Assembly: GCA_902587025.1 (NCBI GenBank)
Contig: CACIJJ010000002.1
Coordinates: 23,473 to 87,472, forward strand
Source: an uncultured Candidatus Actinomarina sp.
Lineage (GTDB): Bacteria; Actinomycetota; Acidimicrobiia; Actinomarinales; Actinomarinaceae
Direction: 5' to 3'
Length of the DNA: 64,000 nt
A program made the position numbers and the translations under genes. Below the pieces are notes generated by a model. That model made no database searches. It was not told the DNA's origin and saw nothing but the letters and a program-made list of their open reading frames with translations. Below, piece by piece: positions 3,468 through 61,097 of the stretch (its first letter is position 1; every line of letters starts with the position of its first letter).

Positions 3468-3545
3468 TTTTTTTAGACAATCTATACTCAAACAGAATAA
3501 ATTATTATCAATTGAGATCAAATGTCTTTCCTCAATCAAAAAAGC

Positions 3546-3580
3546 AAGGAGTCGTCAGTTCGATTATGCCTTTGGCCACA
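3546..3580 (+). repeat. degenerate att-like copy 3 of tRNA-Phe 3' half
   Basis: caaggagtcgtcagttcgattatgcctttggccaca differs from the tRNA-Phe 3' half at 4 of 36 positions and ends with the same ggccaca. Confidence 0.7.
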
Positions 3581-3642
3581 ATAAACACATGCTATATTGA
3601 TATACAAAAATTCTACTAAGTCGATTGCTAAAATAAATACAT

Positions 3643-49955: not shown

Positions 49956-50641
49956 TCATTTTTATATTTTTTTCTAATTTTTACTAGATCTCTAAGCATT
50001 ACTATTGAGTCTTTAATTAATGAGACAGAAGAATTTCTATTAAAATTATATTTAATTGGTACTTCTTGTATTTCTAACCCTATTTCTTTACAAGCTTGAA
50101 TTAAATCTACATCAAAAGAAAACCCTGAAAAAGTTAACCGTTCTGAAATTTTTTGAATTTTATCGCTGTGTAAATATTTGAAACCACATTGTGTATCTTT
50201 GATATCTATATTAAACATTTTTCTTACTATAAAATTAAAAACTTTTCCGGCTAAAACCCTTCTAATTGGTGTATTAATCTCATTGCCTAGACTTCTTGAA
50301 CCAATTAATAAATGATAATTTTTTTTAGAAAGCCAATCAGGATTAAACTCTTTGATGTCTGTAGATAAATCTGCATCTAATATTAGAACTTTATCAAACT
50401 TACAATTTTGTAAGCCTTTTTTAACAGCTGCGCCCTTACCTTTTATGTATTCATTAAGTAACAACACGTATTGCGGATTAACTAAACTATGTATTTTCTC
50501 AACAGTGCTGTCTGTTGATTTATTATTTACTATTAATATCTCACCTTCGCATTTGTTTTCCAGCATCCATTCTTGAACTCTTTTAATACTATCGACAATT
50601 ATTTCTTCTTCGTTGAAGCAGGGTATAACTATACTTATCAT
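49940..50641 (-). CDS. GT2 glycosyltransferase, polyprenol-phosphate sugar synthase (DPM1/ArnC-like)
   Basis: ISIVIPCFNEEEII, then LIVNNKSTDST, then LILDADLS. Confidence 0.75.
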   Translation of the reverse strand: MISIVIPCFNEEEIIVDSIKRVQEWMLENKCEGEILIVNNKSTDSTVEKIHSLVNPQYVLLLNEYIKGKGAAVKKGLQNCKFDKVLILDADLSTDIKEFNPDWLSKKNYHLLIGSRSLGNEINTPIRRVLAGKVFNFIVRKMFNIDIKDTQCGFKYLHSDKIQKISERLTFSGFSFDVDLIQACKEIGLEIQEVPIKYNFNRNSSVSLIKDSIVMLRDLVKIRKKYKNDYLPR

Positions 50642-50763
50642 TAATACTTTAATTTAAAACTTTGTTCAAAAACAGAAACTATTGTCGGATATATTCATGA
50701 ACAATTATTACACAAAATAAAAATTTAAATAAAAGTAGTGAAGTTTTTTTATAAATTTATTTT

Positions 50764-50807
50764 GTAGGCGCTATAGGATTTGAACCTTTGACTTCTTTTT
50801 TGTAAGG
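50764..50807 (-). repeat. degenerate att-like copy 3 of tRNA-Val 3' half
   Basis: gtaggcgctataggatttgaacctttgacttcttttttgtaagg has about 5 mismatches to tRNA-Val 55281-55324. It is followed by a degenerate agaaccatt...tttatgagttcattgat stretch resembling the long flank repeat. Confidence 0.6.
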
Positions 50808-50900
50808 ATAGAACCATTGACACCAGACTAACTTTATGAGTTCATTGATGTTTGTGATAACGACCCAATACTGAAAGTTTATTTTAACTTTGTGTGTCTT

Positions 50901-51030
50901 TTTTCTATATATATGTAAAGATTTTTGTACAAAATCAGCCAAAGTGCCAATTTTTCTATATATATGAAAAGATTTTTGTACAAAATCAGCCAAAGTGCCA
51001 ATTTTTCTATATATATGTAAAGATTTCTCA
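50901..51030. repeat. ~51-bp tandem repeat, about 2.5 copies
   Basis: ttttctatatatatgtaaagatttttgtacaaaatcagccaaagtgccaat appears at 50901-50951 and 50952-51002, with a partial third copy running into att copy 2. Confidence 0.8.
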
Positions 51031-51220
51031 AAAAACTCTTATGAGCGCTACAGGATTTGAACCTGTGACTTCTTCCTTGTAAGGAAAGAACCATTAAATA
51101 CTAGGTAGTATCAGAAAGTATCAGTTTATAGAGTCAATGAACTTAAGCTTACACAAAAAGATATCAGAGGCTATCAGAGAGTATCTACAGTTTTAGAAAA
51201 TTTTGGTGTCTTTTAGGTGT
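51008..51220. repeat. ~215-bp direct repeat, copy A (att plus flanks, TATCAGA motifs, GTGTCTTTT doublet)
   Basis: About 90% identical to 51798-52003. Contains tatatatgtaaagatttct, the tRNA-Val 3' half, aaagaaccattaaatactaggtagta, 5 TATCAG(A) motifs, and ggtgtcttttaggtgtctttt. Confidence 0.8.
51046..51084 (-). repeat. att-like copy 2 of tRNA-Val 3' half (exact)
   Basis: gcgctacaggatttgaacctgtgacttcttccttgtaagg matches 55285-55324 exactly. Confidence 0.9.
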
Positions 51221-51734
51221 CTTTTATAATTTTTTGTGCCTGAGATCTCACAGCTTTTCTTTCATCATTCTTTAACTGTCTTGCGATACTTATAACATTT
51301 GACTTCAATATTTCGTCTGAATTGGATAATTTTTCTAGAAGTTTTAAACCTTGAGCAAGTATCATCCAGTCTTTACTATTTTCCACCCAACTCATTGCAT
51401 TTTTACTAATAACTTTGTATTCTTTATCGTCAAAATATGAAATGAAATCATAATAAATTGTAATAAGCCCAAGTTTGACTACATTATGTTCAGACTCTGA
51501 AAACTCATCTATGAATCTTTTTTTATTTTCAACAAAAATTTGATTATTACCTTTTATTATTCTTTTTGTTGCATTCATAGCTCTCATTGCAACTAAAGAA
51601 TTGTTAGAAAAAAAACATAAGAATAATTTATCAATTTCTTTTATATTATTTTGAATATGTTCTACTACTTTTAATGTCTCTCCAAGTGAGTTTTGTTTTC
51701 CTTTGCTTAACTCAAATTCAAAATCTAATTCCAT
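51213..51734 (-). CDS. hypothetical protein (alpha-helical, HEAT/ARM-like?), cassette cargo
   Basis: 173-aa ORF flanked on both sides by the roughly 215-bp direct repeats. No recognisable motif. Confidence 0.4.
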   Translation of the reverse strand: MELDFEFELSKGKQNSLGETLKVVEHIQNNIKEIDKLFLCFFSNNSLVAMRAMNATKRIIKGNNQIFVENKKRFIDEFSESEHNVVKLGLITIYYDFISYFDDKEYKVISKNAMSWVENSKDWMILAQGLKLLEKLSNSDEILKSNVISIARQLKNDERKAVRSQAQKIIKDT

Positions 51735-51797
51735 AACTAAATGTATATTACCAAATGAAACTCTACAGAGGTGGTGTCTTCTAGGTGTCTTTTGGGT

Positions 51798-52003
51798 ATA
51801 TATATAAAGATTTCTGATAAACCCTTGTGGGCGCTACAGGATTTGAACCTGTGACTTCTTCCTTGTAAGGAAAGAACCATTAAATACTAGGTAGTACCAG
51901 AGAGTATCAATTTATAGAGTCAATGAACTTAAGCTCTTACAAAAAGATATCAGAAGTTATCAGATAGTGTCTACAGTTATAGAAAATTTGTGTGTCTTTT
52001 GTG
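51798..52003. repeat. ~215-bp direct repeat, copy B
   Basis: tatatataaagatttctgataaacccttgtg, then an exact tRNA-Val 3' half (51828-51870), then aaagaaccattaaatactaggtagtaccagagagtatcaatttatagagtcaatgaactt...tgtgtgtcttttgtgtgtcttt. Confidence 0.8.
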
Positions 52004-52049
52004 TGTCTTTTTATTTTCATACATTATTGCTAGCTATTAATATTTAGAT

Positions 52050-52361
52050 ATGTTCATAAAAAAGAAATCAAAAAAGTTAAAAGTAGAATTTAAAAATATA
52101 CAGACCGATCTTTTAAAAATTAATAAGAAGATTTGTGATCTTTACCAAAAAGTAAATCATCTTAACCTAGAAGAGTTGAGAGAAGAGATAAAAGATTTAC
52201 TAGAGTTTTCAGAAATACAAATAATTAATGAACACAAAGGTTACGATAATTGCTTTACAACATCAAATGGTAAGGAAAATATAATCAATAGGCCAGCTTT
52301 TGTTGATAAATATGGAAATTGTCTTGTACAGGGCTACAGAGAAGTAAAAGAAAAAATCTAA
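52050..52361 (+). CDS. hypothetical small protein, first gene of Hsp70-like operon
   Basis: 103 aa, Lys-rich. Stop lies 5 nt before the ATG of the next gene. Confidence 0.4.
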   Translation: MFIKKKSKKLKVEFKNIQTDLLKINKKICDLYQKVNHLNLEELREEIKDLLEFSEIQIINEHKGYDNCFTTSNGKENIINRPAFVDKYGNCLVQGYREVKEKI

Positions 52362-52366
52362 CTTTA

Positions 52367-54619
52367 ATGAGCAAACAGGCTTTAGGTTTTGATTTTGGTA
52401 CTACTAACTGTACTGTGTCAATTTTTGATAGTGAAGAAGGAATTGCAAAAACACTTCCTATCTCAAATTTTTCAGAGTCAAAGAAAAAGAGTTTAGCTAA
52501 TCAATCATTATTTCCATCAAAAGTTGGTCTTAATAATGATTTTGAATATGTATTTGGTGATGATACAAAAAAATGTGAGCGAGATTTTGTATGGGACAAT
52601 TCCAAAAGATTACTAGAACACAACACTCCAATTTATAGGGGAGGAGTTCATAAAAAACCTATCTGGGTTGCAATAGGTATCATTGCTGGAGTTTTTAAGG
52701 AATTAAAAAATTTATCGATAAAAACTTCATCACCTATGGTAATTACGGTTCCTGCAAACTCTTATAGTGTGCAAAGAAGTCTTACTAGATTAGCTGCTGA
52801 AGCATTTAACTTTAATGTAGATCAATTAGTTTCTGAACCATGCGCAGCAGCTTTAGGTTGTTTCAACTACATTAAAAACTTAAAACATATTTTGATAGTT
52901 GATGTAGGAGGTGGAACAACAGATATTGCTTTATTAGAAAATGATTTTGGGACCTTAAAAGAGATTGAAATTGAAGGCTTGAAAAGATTTGGTGGAATAA
53001 ATATTGATCAAAAACTATTCGACACTTATAAATACGAAGTTGAATTATCGACTGATTCAGAAACATTACTCTTTAGAGATTTACTGGAAGACGTAAAAAT
53101 AGAACTATCAACTAAAAAGAAATCTAAGTTAATTTTTAAAGATCAGGTAATCGAAATTACTAGAGATAGTATTGAAAAATTAATAGAAAAAGATATTGAA
53201 AATTTAGATAAAACTATTGATAGAGTACTTAAAAAGGGAAATGTCGAAGTAAAAAATATAGAGGCTGTTTTACCTATTGGAGGCTCATCTAATATTCCTG
53301 CAATAAGAAATCTTTTGAAAAAAAAGTTTAAATCCAGGTTTATTAATCTTAATTTTGAAGAATCAATAACTGCTGTTGCAAATGGAGCAGCAACAGCTTC
53401 AGCCATAAATGCAAAAATTATTGATAATCTAAGTTTTAAACAGTGTCTAGAACATAGTGTTGGCCTTAGGGTGTGGAGCGGCACTAAAGAAAATAAGATT
53501 TTTAAAGCAATACTTGAAAAAGGATCAGTATTTCCAGCATCAGCAGTAGAAACATTTATCTCGGATACAGATGAATCTGTAGTTGCTTTGTATGAAAGTA
53601 CTTCAGGTAAATTAAAAAATAATGATACAAAATTAATTATTGAAAAAAGAATAAAAACTGGTGTTATGCATGTTGATGTTGAGCTCACCTATGATGACGA
53701 TGGAAAAATAGATATTAAGACATACAACATAAATAAAGGAGAACGTGGAAAATTAGGAGACTTGGGAGACAGTACTGAGGATTCTCAAGGGTATATAAAG
53801 AATTTGCAATCAAAATCTCGTAAGCAAGGAATGGATTTAAAAATTGACAATATAAATTACATAGATTCACAATTAACCCAAAAAAAATTAAAAGAATGGT
53901 CGAATGAGTTTTTAGGGAAGTATAAAAAATATAAAAAAGTATCAAAAAAAGTTAAAAATATATTCAAAAAAGAATTTAAAGATGAATTTGTTTCAATTAA
54001 TAAGGAAAATATTTCTGAAGCAATATTTAAAGTGAGAACAGAACTCGATTTTGGTAGTACTAATGATGCATTTATGTTCGCAAGAGGTATTTTGAAACAT
54101 TCTTTAAGGGTGGTGTTTAATATTGCAGGTTATGAAAAACTTCATCACTTTCAAAGTATTCATAAATTATTAGGAGAAAGAGACGTTGTGTATCAAACAA
54201 CACAGAAGCTTTTACCAGAACAACCTCTTGAAGATATTAGGTGGTTAATAAAAGTTCTTCAGAAATCTAGATATTTAAAGAACTTAGGACACACAAATAC
54301 TCAAGAAGTTAGAGACAGTCTTGAATCATTAAGAACAATCTTAAATAAATTTAGTCATGGTGTTCGTTCAAGTTTTTTTGGATTATTTACAGATTCATTA
54401 GATGAATACGATTCTTCAATTGAAAGTAACATACTAAATGCTGTTTATAAAGAATCTAAATATACACCCCAGGATGTTGTCCTACTGGCCTCTAACGTAG
54501 TCTATTTATTAACTTCTCTAATTAATACAGAAGAATATAAGGGAAAAGATAGAGAAAATCTTATGAAAATGCTAGAAAGTATGCTTGCTTTAGAACAGAC
54601 ATATAAAGATGATTTTTAA
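52367..54619 (+). CDS. atypical Hsp70-family ATPase (DnaK-like NBD + SBD-beta-like region + ~290-aa unique alpha-helical C-terminal domain)
   Basis: LGFDFGTTNCTVSIF (phosphate-1), ILIVDVGGGTTDIALL (phosphate-2), VLPIGGSSNIPAIRNLL (adenosine). No EEVD. The C-terminal half is unrelated to the DnaK lid. The track ORF starts at 52319, but the internal ATG at 52367 follows the upstream stop. Confidence 0.65.
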   Translation: MSKQALGFDFGTTNCTVSIFDSEEGIAKTLPISNFSESKKKSLANQSLFPSKVGLNNDFEYVFGDDTKKCERDFVWDNSKRLLEHNTPIYRGGVHKKPIWVAIGIIAGVFKELKNLSIKTSSPMVITVPANSYSVQRSLTRLAAEAFNFNVDQLVSEPCAAALGCFNYIKNLKHILIVDVGGGTTDIALLENDFGTLKEIEIEGLKRFGGINIDQKLFDTYKYEVELSTDSETLLFRDLLEDVKIELSTKKKSKLIFKDQVIEITRDSIEKLIEKDIENLDKTIDRVLKKGNVEVKNIEAVLPIGGSSNIPAIRNLLKKKFKSRFINLNFEESITAVANGAATASAINAKIIDNLSFKQCLEHSVGLRVWSGTKENKIFKAILEKGSVFPASAVETFISDTDESVVALYESTSGKLKNNDTKLIIEKRIKTGVMHVDVELTYDDDGKIDIKTYNINKGERGKLGDLGDSTEDSQGYIKNLQSKSRKQGMDLKIDNINYIDSQLTQKKLKEWSNEFLGKYKKYKKVSKKVKNIFKKEFKDEFVSINKENISEAIFKVRTELDFGSTNDAFMFARGILKHSLRVVFNIAGYEKLHHFQSIHKLLGERDVVYQTTQKLLPEQPLEDIRWLIKVLQKSRYLKNLGHTNTQEVRDSLESLRTILNKFSHGVRSSFFGLFTDSLDEYDSSIESNILNAVYKESKYTPQDVVLLASNVVYLLTSLINTEEYKGKDRENLMKMLESMLALEQTYKDDF

Positions 54620-55196
54620 AAAAAGAAAAATTCAAAAAATTATTTCACTTCACAAAGATGAGATAGCTGATTTAGAAGATGAATATAGGGAAAAACTAAA
54701 ACTTTTGAAAATTGAGGCTGATAATCATTTGGATAAAGAAATTACCAAATATAAAGAAAAATTAGCAAAAGAACAGAATCAAAAAGCTGATTCTGAAAAG
54801 CAAAAGCTACAAACTAAACATGATAAAGAAATCAAACATTTGATCAACGAATATGAAAAACAAAAAATCTTAGAACTTGAAAAGTTAGAAAAAAAATTTC
54901 GAGACTCTGATGTTTTCACAAAGAAGTTACAAAAGTATTTTTCTGATGAACTTGGCAGAGAGTATCAAGATGTTTCATTTAAAGAGCTTGAAGAAGATTT
55001 GAAAAATGATTTAAAAGAGATTGTATATGAAATTAACGATTTAAATAAGCAAGTTGATGATAGCAAGGATAAACTTTTACAATTTAATGAACTTGCTAAA
55101 GAAATAAATTATTTAGAAGAAGAAATAGGAATTAAACGTAATGAACTTTATGAAATCAAGCAGGCAATCAAAGAACTAAAAAAAGAAGGTAATTAA
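54609..55196 (+). CDS. coiled-coil protein (Lys/Glu-rich), third gene of Hsp70-like operon
   Basis: 195 aa with heptad-like KE-rich repeats throughout. Overlaps the preceding gene by 11 nt. Confidence 0.45.
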   Translation: MIFKKRKIQKIISLHKDEIADLEDEYREKLKLLKIEADNHLDKEITKYKEKLAKEQNQKADSEKQKLQTKHDKEIKHLINEYEKQKILELEKLEKKFRDSDVFTKKLQKYFSDELGREYQDVSFKELEEDLKNDLKEIVYEINDLNKQVDDSKDKLLQFNELAKEINYLEEEIGIKRNELYEIKQAIKELKKEGN

Positions 55197-55220
55197 TTTT
55201 TGCATATTCAAAAAGTAATT

Positions 55221-55279
55221 TGTGTGTCTTTTGTGTGTCTTTTTACTATATATATGTAAAGATTTCTGAAAAACCCTTG
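55221..55279. repeat. conserved tRNA-Val 3' flank (GTGTCTTTT doublet + tatatatgtaaagatttctgaaaaacccttgtg)
   Basis: Same sequence module that precedes each att copy at 51775-51827 and, less well, at 51008-51045. Confidence 0.7.
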
Positions 55280-55353
55280 TGGGCGCTACAGGATTTGAAC
55301 CTGTGACTTCTTCCTTGTAAGGGAAGCGCTCTGCCAGACTGAGCTAAGCGCCC
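55280..55353 (-). tRNA. tRNA-Val (anticodon TAC)
   Basis: The reverse complement folds as GGGCGCT-TA-GCTC-AGTCTGGCA-GAGC-G-CTTCC-CTTACAA-GGAAG-AAGTC-ACAGG-TTCAAAT-CCTGT-AGCGCCC-A. Confidence 0.85.
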
Positions 55354-55368
55354 CAATTACAAATAATA

Positions 55369-57006
55369 TTAGTCTTTAAAAATAACATATGAAAAATAAT
55401 TATCTTTTAAAACATTTTTATTTCTTACGCAATCTAAATTAATCCAACACTGATCACCAACCTCAGGCAGAACACCGTATCCAAAAGAGTTGGTGATATA
55501 GTTAATTTGCTGTGGTTTGATATCAACTATTTTTAGATTATTAAAATTTTCAAGAAGAACAAAATAATTATTTAGTTGTGGAACAAGTCCCACAACTACC
55601 AAGTAGAAGGTAATAATACTTTTATAATATTTTTTTTTGAGACTATTTTTTCTGTCTCCTTTGAAAATGCTAGATAAAAATAATACAAACATTAGAAATA
55701 TACCAATTCCCATCCTTATCCCAGGTGCTGAAACAATCCAAACTAAAAAGCTAAAAGCTGTATAAACAAAAGTTACAGCTAAATATACATCTTTCTGTTC
55801 TTTAAAAATTTTTTGAGTTATTATCAATAAAAGCAAAATTGCAAATATTGTCAAAGAATAGTTTTTTATAACTACTGAATTTATATCTTTTGAAAGCCAA
55901 AGCTCCGGCCAATTAAAAAAATTATTTTTGTTGAGTGCTATGTGAAAATTTTTTAAAACATCAGATTCAACCCCAGCTTTTGAGTACCCACTTTGAGATG
56001 ACCATTTAAAATAATTAAAACATGAAATCTTTACTGGATATATTAAGCAACTAGAAGTGATTAAATTTTTTATAAGAAAAGAAAATCCAAAAAAAATAAG
56101 TAATAGTGAGTTATTTAAAAAATAAGTAAAAGTTTGATAAAGCTTGTACTTATACAATACAACTATTAGAAATGCCAAAAACGCAATAGCACCTAAGATT
56201 CTCATTTGAGTTGCAAATAGAGTTAAAGTAAACAATAAATTAATTTCAGAATTTTTTGGTGGAAATTTATCTTCTTTTAAATAGCAAATTAAGAAAAAGC
56301 TTGAAATTATAAATAAAATTGCAAATGGACTGTCTTGTTTTCCTATAGCTTCAATTTCTATAAACCCATTTTTACCACCTCCGAAACCAAAATTATCTAA
56401 AAATCCATAAATTAGAACCGCATATCCAAATTTATAGTGATTAGTAAAAAGAAGTAAATATATAAACTGGAAAAAAACAACTATAAATATTATGTTTACA
56501 AAATGTAAGATTAGAAAATTATTGTCTAACCAAAAGTTTGCATTTATATATTCAATTATTGAGGAATAGCCATAACGCATATGGTTATTTGCTAATCCAA
56601 AAACAATTTTCGAGCTTCTTAACCAATTTTGATGATTTAAATGATAAAGCCCAGCATCATAAGCTAGATTTGTATTTAAAGAGCTAATACCTAAAATTAC
56701 AGGAGTAGCAATATATAGAATTAAATTATTTAATTTAAACGATTGCTTATTTAAATTATCAAATTTCTTGAGGTTATATACAACTGGAATTAATGTAATG
56801 AAAACTAAAAATAAGGAATTTATGTTGTAAAAAAAGTTGTATATAACAGAAAAATTTCCGATAAAAAACAACCCTATAATGGGATAAAAAATATTGCTTT
56901 TAATACCAAAATAGTCCCTAGCTTCATATTTAAAGAGATAAAAATAACCACGACCTACAAAATATATATAGAAATAAAAAATTAAAAATAAAAATATTGT
57001 TATCAT
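55369..57006 (-). CDS. polytopic membrane protein, possible GT-C-type glycosyltransferase
   Basis: 545 aa with more than 12 TM segments. Divergent from, and 9 nt away from, a DPM1-like GT2. Confidence 0.45.
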   Translation of the reverse strand: MITIFLFLIFYFYIYFVGRGYFYLFKYEARDYFGIKSNIFYPIIGLFFIGNFSVIYNFFYNINSLFLVFITLIPVVYNLKKFDNLNKQSFKLNNLILYIATPVILGISSLNTNLAYDAGLYHLNHQNWLRSSKIVFGLANNHMRYGYSSIIEYINANFWLDNNFLILHFVNIIFIVVFFQFIYLLLFTNHYKFGYAVLIYGFLDNFGFGGGKNGFIEIEAIGKQDSPFAILFIISSFFLICYLKEDKFPPKNSEINLLFTLTLFATQMRILGAIAFLAFLIVVLYKYKLYQTFTYFLNNSLLLIFFGFSFLIKNLITSSCLIYPVKISCFNYFKWSSQSGYSKAGVESDVLKNFHIALNKNNFFNWPELWLSKDINSVVIKNYSLTIFAILLLLIITQKIFKEQKDVYLAVTFVYTAFSFLVWIVSAPGIRMGIGIFLMFVLFLSSIFKGDRKNSLKKKYYKSIITFYLVVVGLVPQLNNYFVLLENFNNLKIVDIKPQQINYITNSFGYGVLPEVGDQCWINLDCVRNKNVLKDNYFSYVIFKD

Positions 57007-57015
57007 CTAATTTAA

Positions 57016-57708
57016 ATGTATACGTTAGACGTAATTGTACCATTTTTTAATGAAGAAGTTTTCCTCAAAGAGTCTGTTGGTAGGTTGTTAAAAACTAGTA
57101 TTCATACAAATATATATTTAGTTGACAATAATTCTGATGATAATTCTCCAGAAATTGCAAAAAAATTATCAAAAGACAGAGAAGATGTTCATTATGTAAA
57201 AACACCAGAAGTGTCTGGTAAGGGATTTGGAATACAAACAGTAATGCCATATTTAAAATCGTCTCATGTTGTGATCCACGATGCAGACCTTGAATACTTT
57301 CCAGAAGATATTATTGAAATGTTTGATTTAGCAAAACAAAATCAAAAATCTTTAATTCTAGGTTCACGATTTATTGGATCAAAAATAAGACAAAATATCT
57401 ATTTGAGAACATTTATAGCAAATAGAGTTATGTCATTATTTTTTTCTTTAGTAAATTTTTACAGAATTTCAGATGTAGCATCATGTTATAAATTGATGCC
57501 CGTAGAGTTTCTAAAAAATATAGACCTTAAAGAAAAGGGATTTTCAATAGAGATTGAACTACTCTCCAAATTTTTAAAATTCAACAGATCTGTTTTAGAA
57601 GTACCTATTTCATATGAAGGCAGATCATATGCAGATGGAAAAAAGATAAAAGCAACAGATGGGTTACAGTATTTGTTTAATACAATTAAATACAGGTTTA
57701 TAAATTAA
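57016..57708 (+). CDS. GT2 glycosyltransferase, polyprenol-phosphate sugar synthase (DPM1/ArnC-like)
   Basis: LDVIVPFFNEEVFL, then YLVDNNSDDNS, then HDADLEY. Confidence 0.75.
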   Translation: MYTLDVIVPFFNEEVFLKESVGRLLKTSIHTNIYLVDNNSDDNSPEIAKKLSKDREDVHYVKTPEVSGKGFGIQTVMPYLKSSHVVIHDADLEYFPEDIIEMFDLAKQNQKSLILGSRFIGSKIRQNIYLRTFIANRVMSLFFSLVNFYRISDVASCYKLMPVEFLKNIDLKEKGFSIEIELLSKFLKFNRSVLEVPISYEGRSYADGKKIKATDGLQYLFNTIKYRFIN

Positions 57709-60700
57709 CTACAGCCTAAAGAGTTTCCGCAGTTTAGGCATTTATAGCAAGAGCCATTTCTTATTGTTATGTGTCCACAATCTGGACAAGCAGGAGCGTC
57801 TCCCATCATATCACCAAGAACTTCTTGCACTGTTGTAACGGAATTTGAAGTAGCCTCAGTTTTGTCTAAAGCTTCAACCTCTTTAACTTTTGTAACAAAC
57901 TGCACTTCTTTTACTTCGTTTGAAACTTCTGTAGTTTTAGAGCCGCTTGGAGACTCTGTTTCTTGTACCTCGCTTACAGATTCAGCTATTTCCTCAACCG
58001 GAGCTGAAGGAGATTCTTGAACAGGAGCTGAAGGAGATTCTTGAACAGGAGCTGAAGGAGATTCTTCAGGTGGGTTCTGTACTATATCAGTTCTGTTTAG
58101 ATATTCTAAACCTAGGGCTCTAAAGACATAATCTACAATTGAGTTGCTCATTTTTATATTTTCATGTCCTTCAACCATTCCTCGTGGTTCAAATGTTTGA
58201 AAAGTGAAAGTATCAACGAATTCTTCAAGAGGAACACCATATTGAAGACCTTTAGATACAGCAATGGCAAAACATCCAAGAACTCCTTTGAGAGTCGCAC
58301 CCTCTTTTGCGATATCTATGAAAACTTCACCAAGTGTTCCATCTGGATATTCTCCCGTTCTTAGATATACTTTATGACCTGCGATTTTTGCTTCTTGAGT
58401 CCAACCTTCTCTTCTTTCAGGCAATAAAAACCTTGGTCTTGTTGTTCCTGCATAGGCTTTTGTAGGACTTGTTCCAGCAGGATAGTTCCCATGCATTAAC
58501 ATTGATTCACTTTCAATTATTTCAGAGACTTGCGGATCAGTTTCTTCCGATTCACCATCATCTGAAGATGCAGACAGTGGTTGAGATGCTTTTGATCCAT
58601 CTCTATAAATTGCTATTGCTTTAATACCAAGACCTGCAGATTCGAAATAGCAGTTTTCTATATCTTCTATCGTTGCTTCATTAGGCATATTTACAGTTTT
58701 TGAAATCGCACCAGAAATAAACGGTTGCGCCGCAGCCATCATTCTGACATGACCCATATAATGAATAAATCTTTTTCCATCTTTTCCACATTTGTTAGCA
58801 CAATCAAAAACACTAAGATCTTCATCTTTAAGATGAGGTGCTCCCTCAATTGTTTGAGTTCCACAAATAAATTTATTTGCTTCTGCGATTTCAGTCTTAG
58901 TAAATCCTAGTTTTTCTAAAAGATTGAAATCAAAAGATGTATATTCTTCCTCTTGGATATCAAGTCTTTGCATTGTTTCTTCACCAACCACAAAGACATT
59001 AAATGCATGTTGAATTTCAAAAGCACCTGGTAAAGAATTTTCAATATTTTCAATATCTTGATCATTCAAGCCTTTATCTTTTAGTGTTTCTTTATTAACA
59101 AATGGAGAACCATCTAGTGACATTGATCCAATAACATATTGAATTATTTCTTCAGTTTGTTGATTGGTGTAACCAAGTGCGCTCAATGCTGGACCAATTG
59201 ATTGGTTTGCTATCTTCATATATCCACCACCAGCTAGCTTCTTAAATTTCATTAGTGCAAAGTCTGGTTCTACGCCTGTTGTATCACAATCCATTAGCAA
59301 ACCAATTGTTCCTGTTGGAGCCAGTACGGTTGCTTGTGCATTTCTATATCCATGTTTCTCACCTAATTCAAGTGCTCCATCCCATGAATCTTGTGCACCT
59401 TTTAGTAAATCATCAGGACACAAGTCTTGATCTATTGGTAGTAAGTCATGACTGATTCCAACATAATTATCAGAATCATAAGCTGCTTTTCTGTGGTTGC
59501 CCATAACACGAAGCATGTTGTCTTTGTTTTCTGAATATTTTGGAAATGGTCCGACTATACTTGCCATTTCTGCAGAGGCTTTATAAGCTTCACCAGTCAA
59601 CATTGCTGTCAAAGCACCTGCAATAGCTCTACCTAATTCTGAGTCATACGCAATACCTTTTCTCATCAGAAGGGATCCAAGGTTTGCATATCCCAGACCT
59701 AGTGTTCTGTAGTCATAAGATCCTTGAGCGATTTCTTTTGAAGGAAACTGGGCCATCTCAACTGATATTTCTAGCACTACAGTCCAGATTCTTAGTGCAT
59801 GCTTATATGATGCAACATCAAATACCTGGTTATCATCATCATAAAACTTAACTAAGTTCAAACTTGCTAGGTTACAGGCAGTATTATCTAAAAATAAGTA
59901 TTCAGAGCATGGATTTGATGCTCTAATTTGTCCACCTGCTGGGGAAGTGTGCCACTCATTAATGGTTGTGTTGAATTGAACACCAGGGTCTGCACATCTC
60001 CAAGCAGCATCTGCTATTTTGTTCCATAATTCTCTTGCTTTTACAGTTTTCATTGTTGAACCATCAGTTCTAGCTGTAAGCTCCCAATCTCCATCTGTCT
60101 CGAGTGCTTTTATAAATTCATTTGGTACTCTTACAGAGTTATTTGAGTTTTGACCAGACACAGTAGCATATGCTTCGCCGTTATAGTCTGATGGATACCC
60201 AGCATTGATTAACGCTCTCGCCTTATCTTCTTCAATAGCTTTCCACTCAATAAAATCTTCAATATCTGGATGGTCAAGATCAAGAATAACCATTTTTGCA
60301 GCTCTTCTTGTTGTTCCACCTGATTTAATTGCACCTGCTGCTCTATCGCCAATTTTTAGAAATGACATAACACCTGAGGAGACACCACCACCAGAAAGTT
60401 TTTCTCCCTCACCTCTTAGGTTTGAAAAGTTTGTACCTGTTCCAGACCCAAACTTAAATAATCTTGCTTCTTTTACCCAAAGGTCCATAATTCCACCTTC
60501 GTTGACAAGATCATCATCAATTGATTGAATGAAACAAGCGTGCGGTTGTGGTCTTGAGTAGGAGTCTTCTCCTGGCGTTAATTCACCTGTACTCGGATCA
60601 ACATACCAAAAACCTTGTGGTTTCCCAGTTAATCCATATTTATAATTTAGACCTGTGTTAAACCACTGCGGACTGTTTGGAGCTGCCATCTGGGTTGCAA

Positions 60701-61097
60701 GCATATACTTTAATTCATCTTCAAAAGCCTGAGCATCTTCTGTTGATGCAAAATATCCAGTCTCTTCACCCCAGTGTCTCCATGTCTCTGCAAGTCGGTT
60801 GAATACCTGTTTTGATGATGTTTCAGGTCCTAGAACCAAATCACCATTGTCATCTTTAAGTTCATTTCCGTTTTCATCTGTCTGAGGAACACCGGCTTTT
60901 CTAAAATATTTTGAAACCATTATGTCAGTAGCTACTTGAGACCAGGATGAAGGGATCTCAACGTCATTCATTTCGAAAACTATTGAGCCATCTGGGTTAG
61001 TTATCTTTGAACTTCTCTTTTCCCAAACTATGTCTTTGTAAGGATCACCAGGTGAGGTATATTTCCTATTTATCTTGAGCCCTGTATTTTTTGCCAC
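57705..61097 (-). CDS. nrdJ: class II (adenosylcobalamin-dependent) ribonucleotide reductase
   Basis: 1130 aa. RNR catalytic core blocks (SNPCSEY, LGLGYANLG). C-terminal Cys-rich zinc-ribbon CPDCGH...CYKCLNCG. Intragenic ESPSAPVQ x3 linker. Confidence 0.9.
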   Translation of the reverse strand: MAKNTGLKINRKYTSPGDPYKDIVWEKRSSKITNPDGSIVFEMNDVEIPSSWSQVATDIMVSKYFRKAGVPQTDENGNELKDDNGDLVLGPETSSKQVFNRLAETWRHWGEETGYFASTEDAQAFEDELKYMLATQMAAPNSPQWFNTGLNYKYGLTGKPQGFWYVDPSTGELTPGEDSYSRPQPHACFIQSIDDDLVNEGGIMDLWVKEARLFKFGSGTGTNFSNLRGEGEKLSGGGVSSGVMSFLKIGDRAAGAIKSGGTTRRAAKMVILDLDHPDIEDFIEWKAIEEDKARALINAGYPSDYNGEAYATVSGQNSNNSVRVPNEFIKALETDGDWELTARTDGSTMKTVKARELWNKIADAAWRCADPGVQFNTTINEWHTSPAGGQIRASNPCSEYLFLDNTACNLASLNLVKFYDDDNQVFDVASYKHALRIWTVVLEISVEMAQFPSKEIAQGSYDYRTLGLGYANLGSLLMRKGIAYDSELGRAIAGALTAMLTGEAYKASAEMASIVGPFPKYSENKDNMLRVMGNHRKAAYDSDNYVGISHDLLPIDQDLCPDDLLKGAQDSWDGALELGEKHGYRNAQATVLAPTGTIGLLMDCDTTGVEPDFALMKFKKLAGGGYMKIANQSIGPALSALGYTNQQTEEIIQYVIGSMSLDGSPFVNKETLKDKGLNDQDIENIENSLPGAFEIQHAFNVFVVGEETMQRLDIQEEEYTSFDFNLLEKLGFTKTEIAEANKFICGTQTIEGAPHLKDEDLSVFDCANKCGKDGKRFIHYMGHVRMMAAAQPFISGAISKTVNMPNEATIEDIENCYFESAGLGIKAIAIYRDGSKASQPLSASSDDGESEETDPQVSEIIESESMLMHGNYPAGTSPTKAYAGTTRPRFLLPERREGWTQEAKIAGHKVYLRTGEYPDGTLGEVFIDIAKEGATLKGVLGCFAIAVSKGLQYGVPLEEFVDTFTFQTFEPRGMVEGHENIKMSNSIVDYVFRALGLEYLNRTDIVQNPPEESPSAPVQESPSAPVQESPSAPVEEIAESVSEVQETESPSGSKTTEVSNEVKEVQFVTKVKEVEALDKTEATSNSVTTVQEVLGDMMGDAPACPDCGHITIRNGSCYKCLNCGNSLGCS

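Follow-up and report, generated by a model that had tools for sequence, protein, structure and literature searches.

Why does the 3' part of a tRNA gene recur beside the intact gene at one end of a bacterial genomic island, and what are the units that lie between the copies? The question is raised by a stretch of 64,000 nucleotides from an uncultured Candidatus Actinomarina sp. (GenBank assembly GCA_902587025.1, contig CACIJJ010000002.1), the whole of which is referred to here as the window. An intact tRNA-Val(tac) gene lies at 55279-55353 on the minus strand (ARAGORN; Rfam tRNA, 73.8 bits), and its 3' part is repeated at three sites inward of it (51827-51870, 51045-51084, and 50764-50807). 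We consider it probable that three integrase-less cassettes are stacked head to tail in this region (3.4 kb, 0.74 kb, and 0.24 kb, the last being empty), each flanked by attachment (att) sites and brought in by successive site-specific integrations at the tRNA-Val gene of Actinomarina, which would serve as the chromosomal attachment site. The cassettes would have been mobilised in trans or derived from circular elements.

The repeated core comprises the 3' 44 nt of tRNA-Val, from the anticodon loop to the 3' end (55279-55322, minus strand). The copy at 51827-51870 is exact, with identity extending over 51825-51870, the copy at 51045-51084 is exact with mismatches at 51041 and 51044, and the copy at 50764-50807 differs at five positions. 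Threefold recurrence had been claimed in the original prediction and is confirmed by a 41-mer from the core, which has three matches at up to three mismatches against none in 100 shuffles. The longer repeats around the copies are not low-complexity coincidence either: positions 51033-51225 and 51819-52011 align without gaps at 91% identity over 193 nt, where the prediction had drawn the line for coincidence at about 70%. A profile built from 84 related modules finds four sites in the 64 kb and no others, at 51758-52016 (E = 1e-77), 51002-51228 (5e-68), 55214-55326 (4e-33), and 50748-50821 (1e-18). A module of about 215 bp had been proposed at each copy; it is real and confined to this spot, but it is complete at two copies only and measures about 260 bp, since it ends in 11-bp-spaced doublets that had been overlooked. 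The tRNA itself has the left arm alone, and the distal copy has little beyond the core.

Read on the plus strand, a unit consists of a doublet, about 35 nt (TATATATATGTAAAGATTTCTGAAAAACCCTT), the 44-nt tRNA core, a right arm of about 120 nt (AAAGAACCATTAAATACTAGG ... GTATCTACAGTTTTAGAAAATTT) holding repeated GTATC/TATCAGAG motifs, and a second doublet. The doublet is a direct repeat with an 11-bp period, present at both module ends and on both sides of the core, at a distance of about 64 nt on the left and about 118 nt on the right, in the window as well as in the free circles described below. The sequence GTGTCTTTT occurs eight times in the window, against an expectation of 0.8, with all occurrences on the plus strand and within 50894-55243. 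Among 84 unique modules the right arm is 70 to 99% conserved per column (the search pattern forced arm positions 1-21 only), and doublet variation falls mainly at positions 4 and 7 of GTGnGTn, identically in both units. The doublets pair per cassette, not per junction. They are most likely arm-type sites for the N-terminal domain of a tyrosine integrase of the lambda/L5 type, which would bind them, with their sequence setting putative specificity classes. At a permissive threshold Rfam returns tRNA matches only, with no RNA family in the arms. The tRNA model scores 32.4 bits, more than the gathering score, at 51050-51106 and 51836-51892 (minus strand); these matches join a partial copy to about 22 nt of right arm, the start of which faintly resembles a tRNA 5' half. 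Across 50600-55450, promoters are fewer than expected from shuffles and the sole predicted terminators are tRNA T-arms.

Direct repeats of the tRNA 3' part (four copies including tRNA-Val, which is intact) bound each unit, and the claim that they delimit three cassettes was borne out. Cassette A (51871-55278) adjoins the tRNA. Its left arm (TACTATATATATGTAAAGATTTCTGAAAAACCCTT, 55244-55278) runs from the doublet to the tRNA 3' end, its left doublet of two GTGTGTCTTTT units with an 11-bp period (55222-55243, plus strand; putative arm-type sites) is the same as the right doublet (51990-52011, plus strand), and its right arm (51871-51989) is of the conserved cassette type (AAAGAACCATTAAATACTAGG...GTGTCTACAGTTATAGAAAATTT). 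Partial tRNA copy 2, the exact 3' 44 nt (51827-51870, minus strand), forms the junction with cassette B (51085-51826), which has doublets of the GGTGTCTTTTA/GGTGTCTTTT class at both ends. The left end of cassette B (51773-51826) combines the doublet GGTGTCTTCTA GGTGTCTTTT (51773-51793) with a left arm (51794-51826), and its right end (51085-51225) combines a right arm (51085-51204) with the doublet GGTGTCTTTTA GGTGTCTTTT (51205-51225). At both ends of cassettes A and B, then, arm, doublet, and core are complete; neither cassette carries a recombinase. Copy 3 (51045-51084, minus strand), exact over 40 nt, separates cassette B from cassette C (50808-51044), which is empty or decayed and has no open reading frame (ORF) as cargo. 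Cassette C has a degenerate right arm (50808-50891), a single GTGTGTCTTTT unit (50892-50902), and a 51-bp tandem repeat in three copies (50900-51052; copies 1 and 2 are 98% identical) that reiterates the left-arm start. Copy 4 (50764-50807, minus strand), with its five mismatches, is the oldest and most distal; as its outer flank shows neither arm nor doublet, it marks the original boundary of the hotspot.

The same anatomy is found well beyond the window. A metagenome scan with the arm-core junction yielded at least 120 further loci, giving about 140 related loci overall, and at least 146 partial cores and 33 full tRNAs were located among the loci listed. In the listed loci, start and end doublets are the same in 52 of the 56 cassettes for which both are detectable, whereas after shuffling of partners 14.5 agree on average and no more than 26 in any of 2,000 trials; the two doublets around one core agree in just 5 of 46 cases. 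The 72 complete cassettes fall into 61 cargo clusters, so that redundancy is not the cause of the doublet matching. Cassettes range from 183 bp (empty, with one doublet) to 5.9 kb and are most often about 750 bp long, and intact empty cassettes of 183 to 192 bp are present at two other loci (L119 and L040). At least 15 doublet classes occur together at one chromosomal site. The diversity bears on tandem amplification of one unit by unequal homologous recombination, which the original prediction had entertained: a local 51-bp tandem triplication (50900-51052) does occur, but the three units of the window differ in length (3.4, 0.74, and 0.24 kb), cargo, and doublet sequence, and the 72 cassettes elsewhere are spread over 61 cargo clusters. 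We regard amplification as highly improbable.

If the cassettes encode no integrase, where would one come from? Among the ORFs of the loci derived from the junction pattern, the sole tyrosine recombinase (L023:5481-6581; PF00589, 5e-19) lies inside a 5.9-kb element that is integrated at tRNA-Val, with AGTGGGGG doublets at both ends, and that also encodes an Xre-type helix-turn-helix (HTH) protein, a DUF3631 protein, and a small terminase (phrog_4102, 6e-17). A database search returned 24 clusters of homologous integrases (42 to 100% identity), all from marine metagenomes and on contigs of about 5.5 to 7.4 kb. Contigs from independent samples are circular permutations of one another: one sequence of 6,242 bp and another of 7,224 bp are each matched in a single high-scoring segment pair that runs across the junction of its own doubled partner, and circular integrase contigs have k-mer terminal overlaps in unique sequence. 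Free, permuted, or integrated forms are seen for several autonomous relatives (L146/L147, L151/L152, and L154 versus L155). L155 and L156 are 5,552-bp contigs that align as rotated copies save for an unaligned stretch of about 300 nt, and L154 is the integrated form of their sequence, opened at the core beside an intact tRNA-Val.

Every sequenced attP of these circles has the layout of the window: doublet X, spacer, tRNA core, arm of about 120 nt, doublet X. A large attP shared by successive elements, as first supposed, is thereby upheld, the layout being that of the single attP of free integrase-bearing circles. What had been taken for the native 3' flank of the tRNA is instead an element-borne left arm, as the left arm of cassette A also adjoins the integrase gene in two free elements (L165 and L167). 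Doublet classes of the circles coincide with those of the cassettes. Integrase cluster P0022 goes with the doublet TGTGTCTTTTT, the class of cassettes A and B, while P0020 goes with GTGCGGTT (its element contig ends in the core, and the attP right arm is not covered), P0024 with GCGGGTC, P0019 with GTGTGTGTAAT, P0023 with AAGGGTCTGAT, and P0001 and P0003 with G-run doublets. In an AlphaFold model (pLDDT 82), the P0022 integrase begins with a domain of three strands and a helix (residues 3-54), followed by a flexible, low-confidence linker and then by the core-binding domain and the catalytic domain. Its alignment with full-length lambda Int spans about 350 columns, and the best alignment is that with Tn1549 Int. 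As modelled, the circle-encoded integrase has the three-domain lambda/L5-like fold, which is how integrases that bridge core sites and arm sites are built.

Several observations concern the circles themselves. Sister elements (P0010, P0016, and P0011; L150-L153, L161, and L163) share the doublet-arm-core-arm-doublet layout around a core resembling tRNA-Ile(GAT), which agrees with the mention of a tRNA-Ile locus with direct repeats in Lopez-Perez et al. 2020. Autonomous elements show triple iterons of 9 to 10 bp directly after the int stop codon (e.g., TGTTACCCT TGTTACTCT TGTTACCCC), seen around L150 6156-7000 and in L162, L146, L155, and L158, and recurring inverted some 700 nt further on. They also show a conserved block after the right doublet (GACCCCCAG..TCAATGTGG..GGGGTCTATATA..AATGTAACCCC), and iterons and block together may be a replication origin or a regulator-binding region. 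A distant homologue (P0029; 26% identity, 431 aa) is encoded on a 1.08-Mb contig, the extent of a whole Actinomarina genome, and could be a chromosomally resident integrase. A viral contig collection yielded no match to either of two DNA patterns or to an integrase profile.

In which organism does all this take place? The locus is the fGI1 island already published for Actinomarinales, and the host is Candidatus Actinomarina, since the module, an identical tRNA-Val, and a syntenic ribonucleotide reductase (RNR) all occur in Actinomarina genomes. Searched against one genome per species, the junction pattern matched 13 contigs of Candidatus Actinomarina/OCS155 and no cyanobacterial contig; six further matches lack the tRNA core, are unrelated, and are due to chance. 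Two Ca. Actinomarina contigs (L011 and L017) carry an identical 75-nt tRNA-Val gene, and the class II RNR beyond tRNA-Val is syntenic and 73 to 86% identical at the protein level in three Actinomarina contigs. The picocyanobacterial or cyanophage host or donor suggested by the original prediction is rejected on the strength of the module pattern, the tRNA-Val identical in Actinomarina single-amplified genomes (SAGs), and the syntenic RNR; the three scans of viral contigs were likewise empty.

The remainder of the window is a low-GC island of envelope glycosylation genes, with tRNA-Asp and tRNA-Phe (ARAGORN) at one end and tRNA-Val at the other. The RNR ORF (57705-61097) encodes 1,130 aa with a TSCPD domain near the C terminus, and the GC content around it is 37 to 40%, against 23 to 30% in the island, marking the return to the core genome past tRNA-Val. 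Lopez-Perez et al. 2020 (PMC7771536) described fGI1 as a hypervariable island of "Candidatus Actinomarinales" whose tRNA genes are hot spots of cassette insertion. Island content, tRNA boundaries, the presence of module and tRNA in SAGs, and RNR synteny all agree with the tRNA-direct-repeat cassettes of fGI1. Neither that paper nor a preprint on complete genomes (10.64898/2026.04.03.716425) names an integrase or attachment-site anatomy or reports identifiable mobile elements; both leave the integration mechanism open, and the preprint describes it as still to be identified. Locus, organism group, and the tRNA-bounded low-GC glycosylation island are therefore the same as in these reports; what we add is the attP-type module of about 260 bp, doublets specific to each cassette, circular elements with cognate integrases, and cargo of the defence type at tRNA-Val. 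The tRNA-Phe end has an array of its own, with tRNA-Phe at 195-268 and partial 3' copies at 1028-1068, 1715-1755, and 3541-3581 bounding units of one or two genes. Its arms are short (26 nt from core to ORF at 1068-1094) and no clear doublets are seen. A different recombination system is probably at work there.

How, then, might the stack have been built? A small circle would open at its attP of about 260 bp (doublet X, some 35 nt, 44-nt core, arm of some 120 nt, doublet X). Integration at the anticodon-loop core would regenerate the tRNA from the copy of the element and leave the displaced 3' part distal, so that newer cassettes push older ones inward and C, B, and A would have arrived in that order. 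The predicted order on the plus strand is native flank, core, C, core, B, core, A, tRNA, and the oldest core copy is indeed the most decayed, as stepwise integration predicts. Each internal junction would consist of the left arm of the older cassette and the right arm of the younger one, which would make the junctions resemble a whole attP with mismatched doublets. The integrases would be supplied neither by the cassettes nor by the window but by the satellite-like circles of 5.5 to 7.4 kb (int, HTH regulator, and DUF3631 protein), with the cassettes as non-autonomous hitchhikers that are mobilised in trans by the cognate integrase or derived from such elements.

We infer mobilisation in trans, with excision and integration of cassettes as units, chiefly from the distribution of cassette B. 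At least 10 loci, among them representatives of three other species, share its DNA at 98 to 99% identity, while the RNR reaches only 73 to 86% protein identity to Actinomarina contigs. The sole contig with both cassette B and the RNR is L007, where the RNR shows 86% protein identity. In L011 and L123 cassette B is next to the tRNA, but in L010 and the window newer cassettes lie between the two.

These data also bear on whether the cassettes are dead remnants, that is, full integrase elements that integrated serially, were reduced to a few genes by internal deletion, and are no longer mobile. Decay does occur, cassette C being degenerate, and one-doublet empty cassettes could arise by deletion between two doublets; work on tycheposons (bioRxiv 10.1101/2020.12.28.424599) likewise describes degenerated elements and partial tRNAs scattered in islands. 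Yet deletions at random would be expected to destroy an arm or a doublet in many cassettes, whereas both arms and a matched pair of doublets persist in 52 of 56. Fragments of the hallmark genes of autonomous elements are absent from the 61 cargo clusters other than L023, and the cassettes have a right arm of their own, unlike that of autonomous elements in the same doublet class. Near-identity of cassette B across species and at varied array positions, beside an RNR of 86% protein identity in L007, also speaks against immobile remnants, which we judge an unlikely explanation.

Spread by homologous recombination is a further alternative, in which the modules of about 260 bp are portable homology through which RecA splices in linear DNA from vesicles, transduction, or lysis, and the arm anatomy is a historical trace. 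With 70 to 99% conservation per column, the modules offer about 80 to 165 bp of homology on each side of the cargo, crossovers outside the doublets would keep the matched-doublet pattern, and the window holds no integrase. This account leaves unexplained why each cassette has four intact and identical doublet units that diverge between cassettes at two positions, and why their classes coincide with the arm repeats of distinct integrase circles. New cassettes moreover lie beside the tRNA, where integration at attB would place them: cassette B is adjacent to it in L011 and L123 but displaced by newer cassettes in the window and in L010. Homologous recombination through the conserved modules could contribute to the spread of cassettes, but as the whole explanation it appears even a little less probable than decay of former integrase elements.

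Several points weigh against site-specific integration of integrase-less cassettes. The 64-kb window contains no integrase: none was among the best 25 matches listed when 48 island ORFs were compared with Pfam, phmmer with XerD and lambda Int as queries found none among ORFs of at least 100 aa, and a family-specific profile (hmmsearch) found none among ORFs of at least 40 aa. Only 1 of the approximately 140 loci retrieved by the cassette arm has an integrase (L023), a rarity that requires a partner acting transiently or from another place. Among the fetched loci there was no excised circle of any integrase-less cassette, and cassette C is decayed. Finally, the cassette right arm is common to many doublet classes and unlike the right arms of integrase elements with the same doublet, which is not what a simple origin as a deleted copy of the own parent predicts. 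Candidates for circular cassette contigs were discarded, since they show no terminal overlaps except for 16 nt within the core in L141, which an assembly break would be expected to give as well. No core in the related loci has the same cargo on both sides, and junctions with like doublets were rejected as circles, being merely neighbouring cassettes of one class.

Judged by their sequences, the cassettes look like a lineage of their own in which the four doublet units change in concert. Doublets may be switched via one-doublet empty intermediates such as L119 and cassette C, or the arm of the P0020 element may be the source of the right arm.

What do the cassettes carry? Pfam and PADLOC assignments for 90 cassette ORFs are dominated by defence functions, including GmrSD, Mrr-ResIII helicase/type IIG enzymes, Schlafen AlbA_2, HNH, SAD/SRA, three DNA methylase families, T5orf172, SspE-like proteins, and HEC-05/06. 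The tRNA-Val end of the island thus behaves as an array of defence-gene cassettes. In the window, the cargo of cassette A (52012-55221, plus strand) comprises three ORFs, encoding 103 aa (52050-52361), 766 aa (52319-54619), and a Lys/Glu-rich protein of 195 aa that is probably a coiled coil (54609-55196). The 766-aa protein is a divergent ATPase of the Hsp70 family according to NCBIfam and the PDB, far under the DnaK and HscA cut-offs. Cassette A matches no known defence system, PADLOC giving weak single matches only, and no copy of this cargo is present among the fetched loci. Because the other cassettes of the array mostly hold defence genes, the three-ORF operon (52050-55196) is a candidate for an undescribed defence system. 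Cassette B carries one ORF of 173 aa (51213-51734, minus strand), the stop codon of which lies inside the right doublet and the product of which has no family match.

The attachment sites are closest in build to those of phages of Mycobacterium, likewise an actinobacterium. There the core lies between pairs of 11-bp arm-type repeats, which are direct in L5 and Giles, and the arm-site consensus differs at few positions between relatives and co-varies with N-terminal integrase residues (PMC3203893). With L5, Giles, and Cluster K as well as lambda Int, the sites share a core overlapping the tRNA 3' part, 11-bp pairs (direct as in L5 and Giles), and the three-domain model of the integrase. Unlike a mycobacteriophage attP, however, most carriers here have no integrase or phage genes, their cargo is 0.2 to 5 kb, and at least 15 doublet classes coexist at one site. 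No tyrosine integrase is encoded by the units, and cognate ones are found only on the separate elements of 5.5 to 7.4 kb.

Comparison with cis-mobilisable elements (CIMEs) is instructive as well. These have lost integration and transfer genes but keep attL and attR intact, and in streptococci they accrete in tandem with integrative and conjugative elements (ICEs) (ICEberg 2.0, PMC6323972). Cassettes A and B similarly lack integration genes while retaining attL and attR, and sharing of one site with autonomous elements is common to both cases. CIMEs, however, are derived from conjugative elements and move in cis with an ICE, whereas the partners here are circles of 5.5 to 7.4 kb without conjugation genes; the L023 element, which encodes a small terminase, has no relaxase or type IV secretion match in Pfam and PHROGs, and the precomputed Pfam labels of the others list none. 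The cassettes are also far smaller and appear to form their own lineage with a shared arm, and their matched ends point to separate mobilisation.

Tycheposons and satellites of Prochlorococcus that resemble phage-inducible chromosomal islands (bioRxiv 10.1101/2020.12.28.424599) offer a further parallel, being tRNA-targeting elements with tyrosine integrases at the proximal end of genomic islands in a streamlined marine host. Tandem elements parted by partial tRNAs, some with small terminases, and circular forms are found in both cases, and our autonomous relatives broadly resemble tycheposons (int, Xre-like HTH, DUF3631, and TerS). The units of the window lack the hallmark genes. Differences are the phylum, the targets (tRNA-Val and tRNA-Ile are not among their seven), and the smaller size of the autonomous elements; moreover, the tycheposon paper describes "remnants" only, not integrase-less cassettes with complete, class-matched arms.

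Like integrons, the arrays consist of mostly single-gene, promoter-poor cassettes with their own recombination sites, accumulate at one attachment point, and often carry defence genes. They differ in having no intI beside the site and no hairpin of the attC type; instead, a direct-repeat attP of about 260 bp joins a tRNA core with arm repeats, and the recombinase is, we suggest, supplied by separate mobile elements.

Few free-living marine bacteria are as small or as abundant as Candidatus Actinomarina, which has a genome of 1.1 Mb and has been reported to be without identifiable mobile elements. The kind of locus analysed here is already published for the order; new are the att-site anatomy, the class-matched repeats, the integrase circles, and the array of non-autonomous defence cassettes. 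Together they provide testable candidates for the mechanism that fills the island, namely an integrase family on small circles, an attachment site of about 260 bp, and arm repeats that would sort the classes. They also outline a concrete route by which a 1.1-Mb genome may sample anti-phage genes (GmrSD, Mrr-helicase, Schlafen/AlbA, SRA, methylases, and HEC candidates). In a bolder form, which is possible but which we put forward only tentatively, streamlined marine Actinobacteria would run a tRNA-anchored, integron-like bank of defence genes, drawn from a dedicated lineage of integrase-less mini-elements that each have one conserved arm of about 120 nt, switch their four arm-type repeats among at least 15 classes, and could in this way borrow the integrases of different small, terminase-bearing satellites. 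If true, this would amount to a three-tier chain of cassette on satellite on phage that supplies most of the anti-phage repertoire of the cell. The class-matched arm sites would further offer a natural system for the diversification of integrase arm specificity, and a borrowed satellite integrase is a possible way for streamlined cells to collect genes against viruses.

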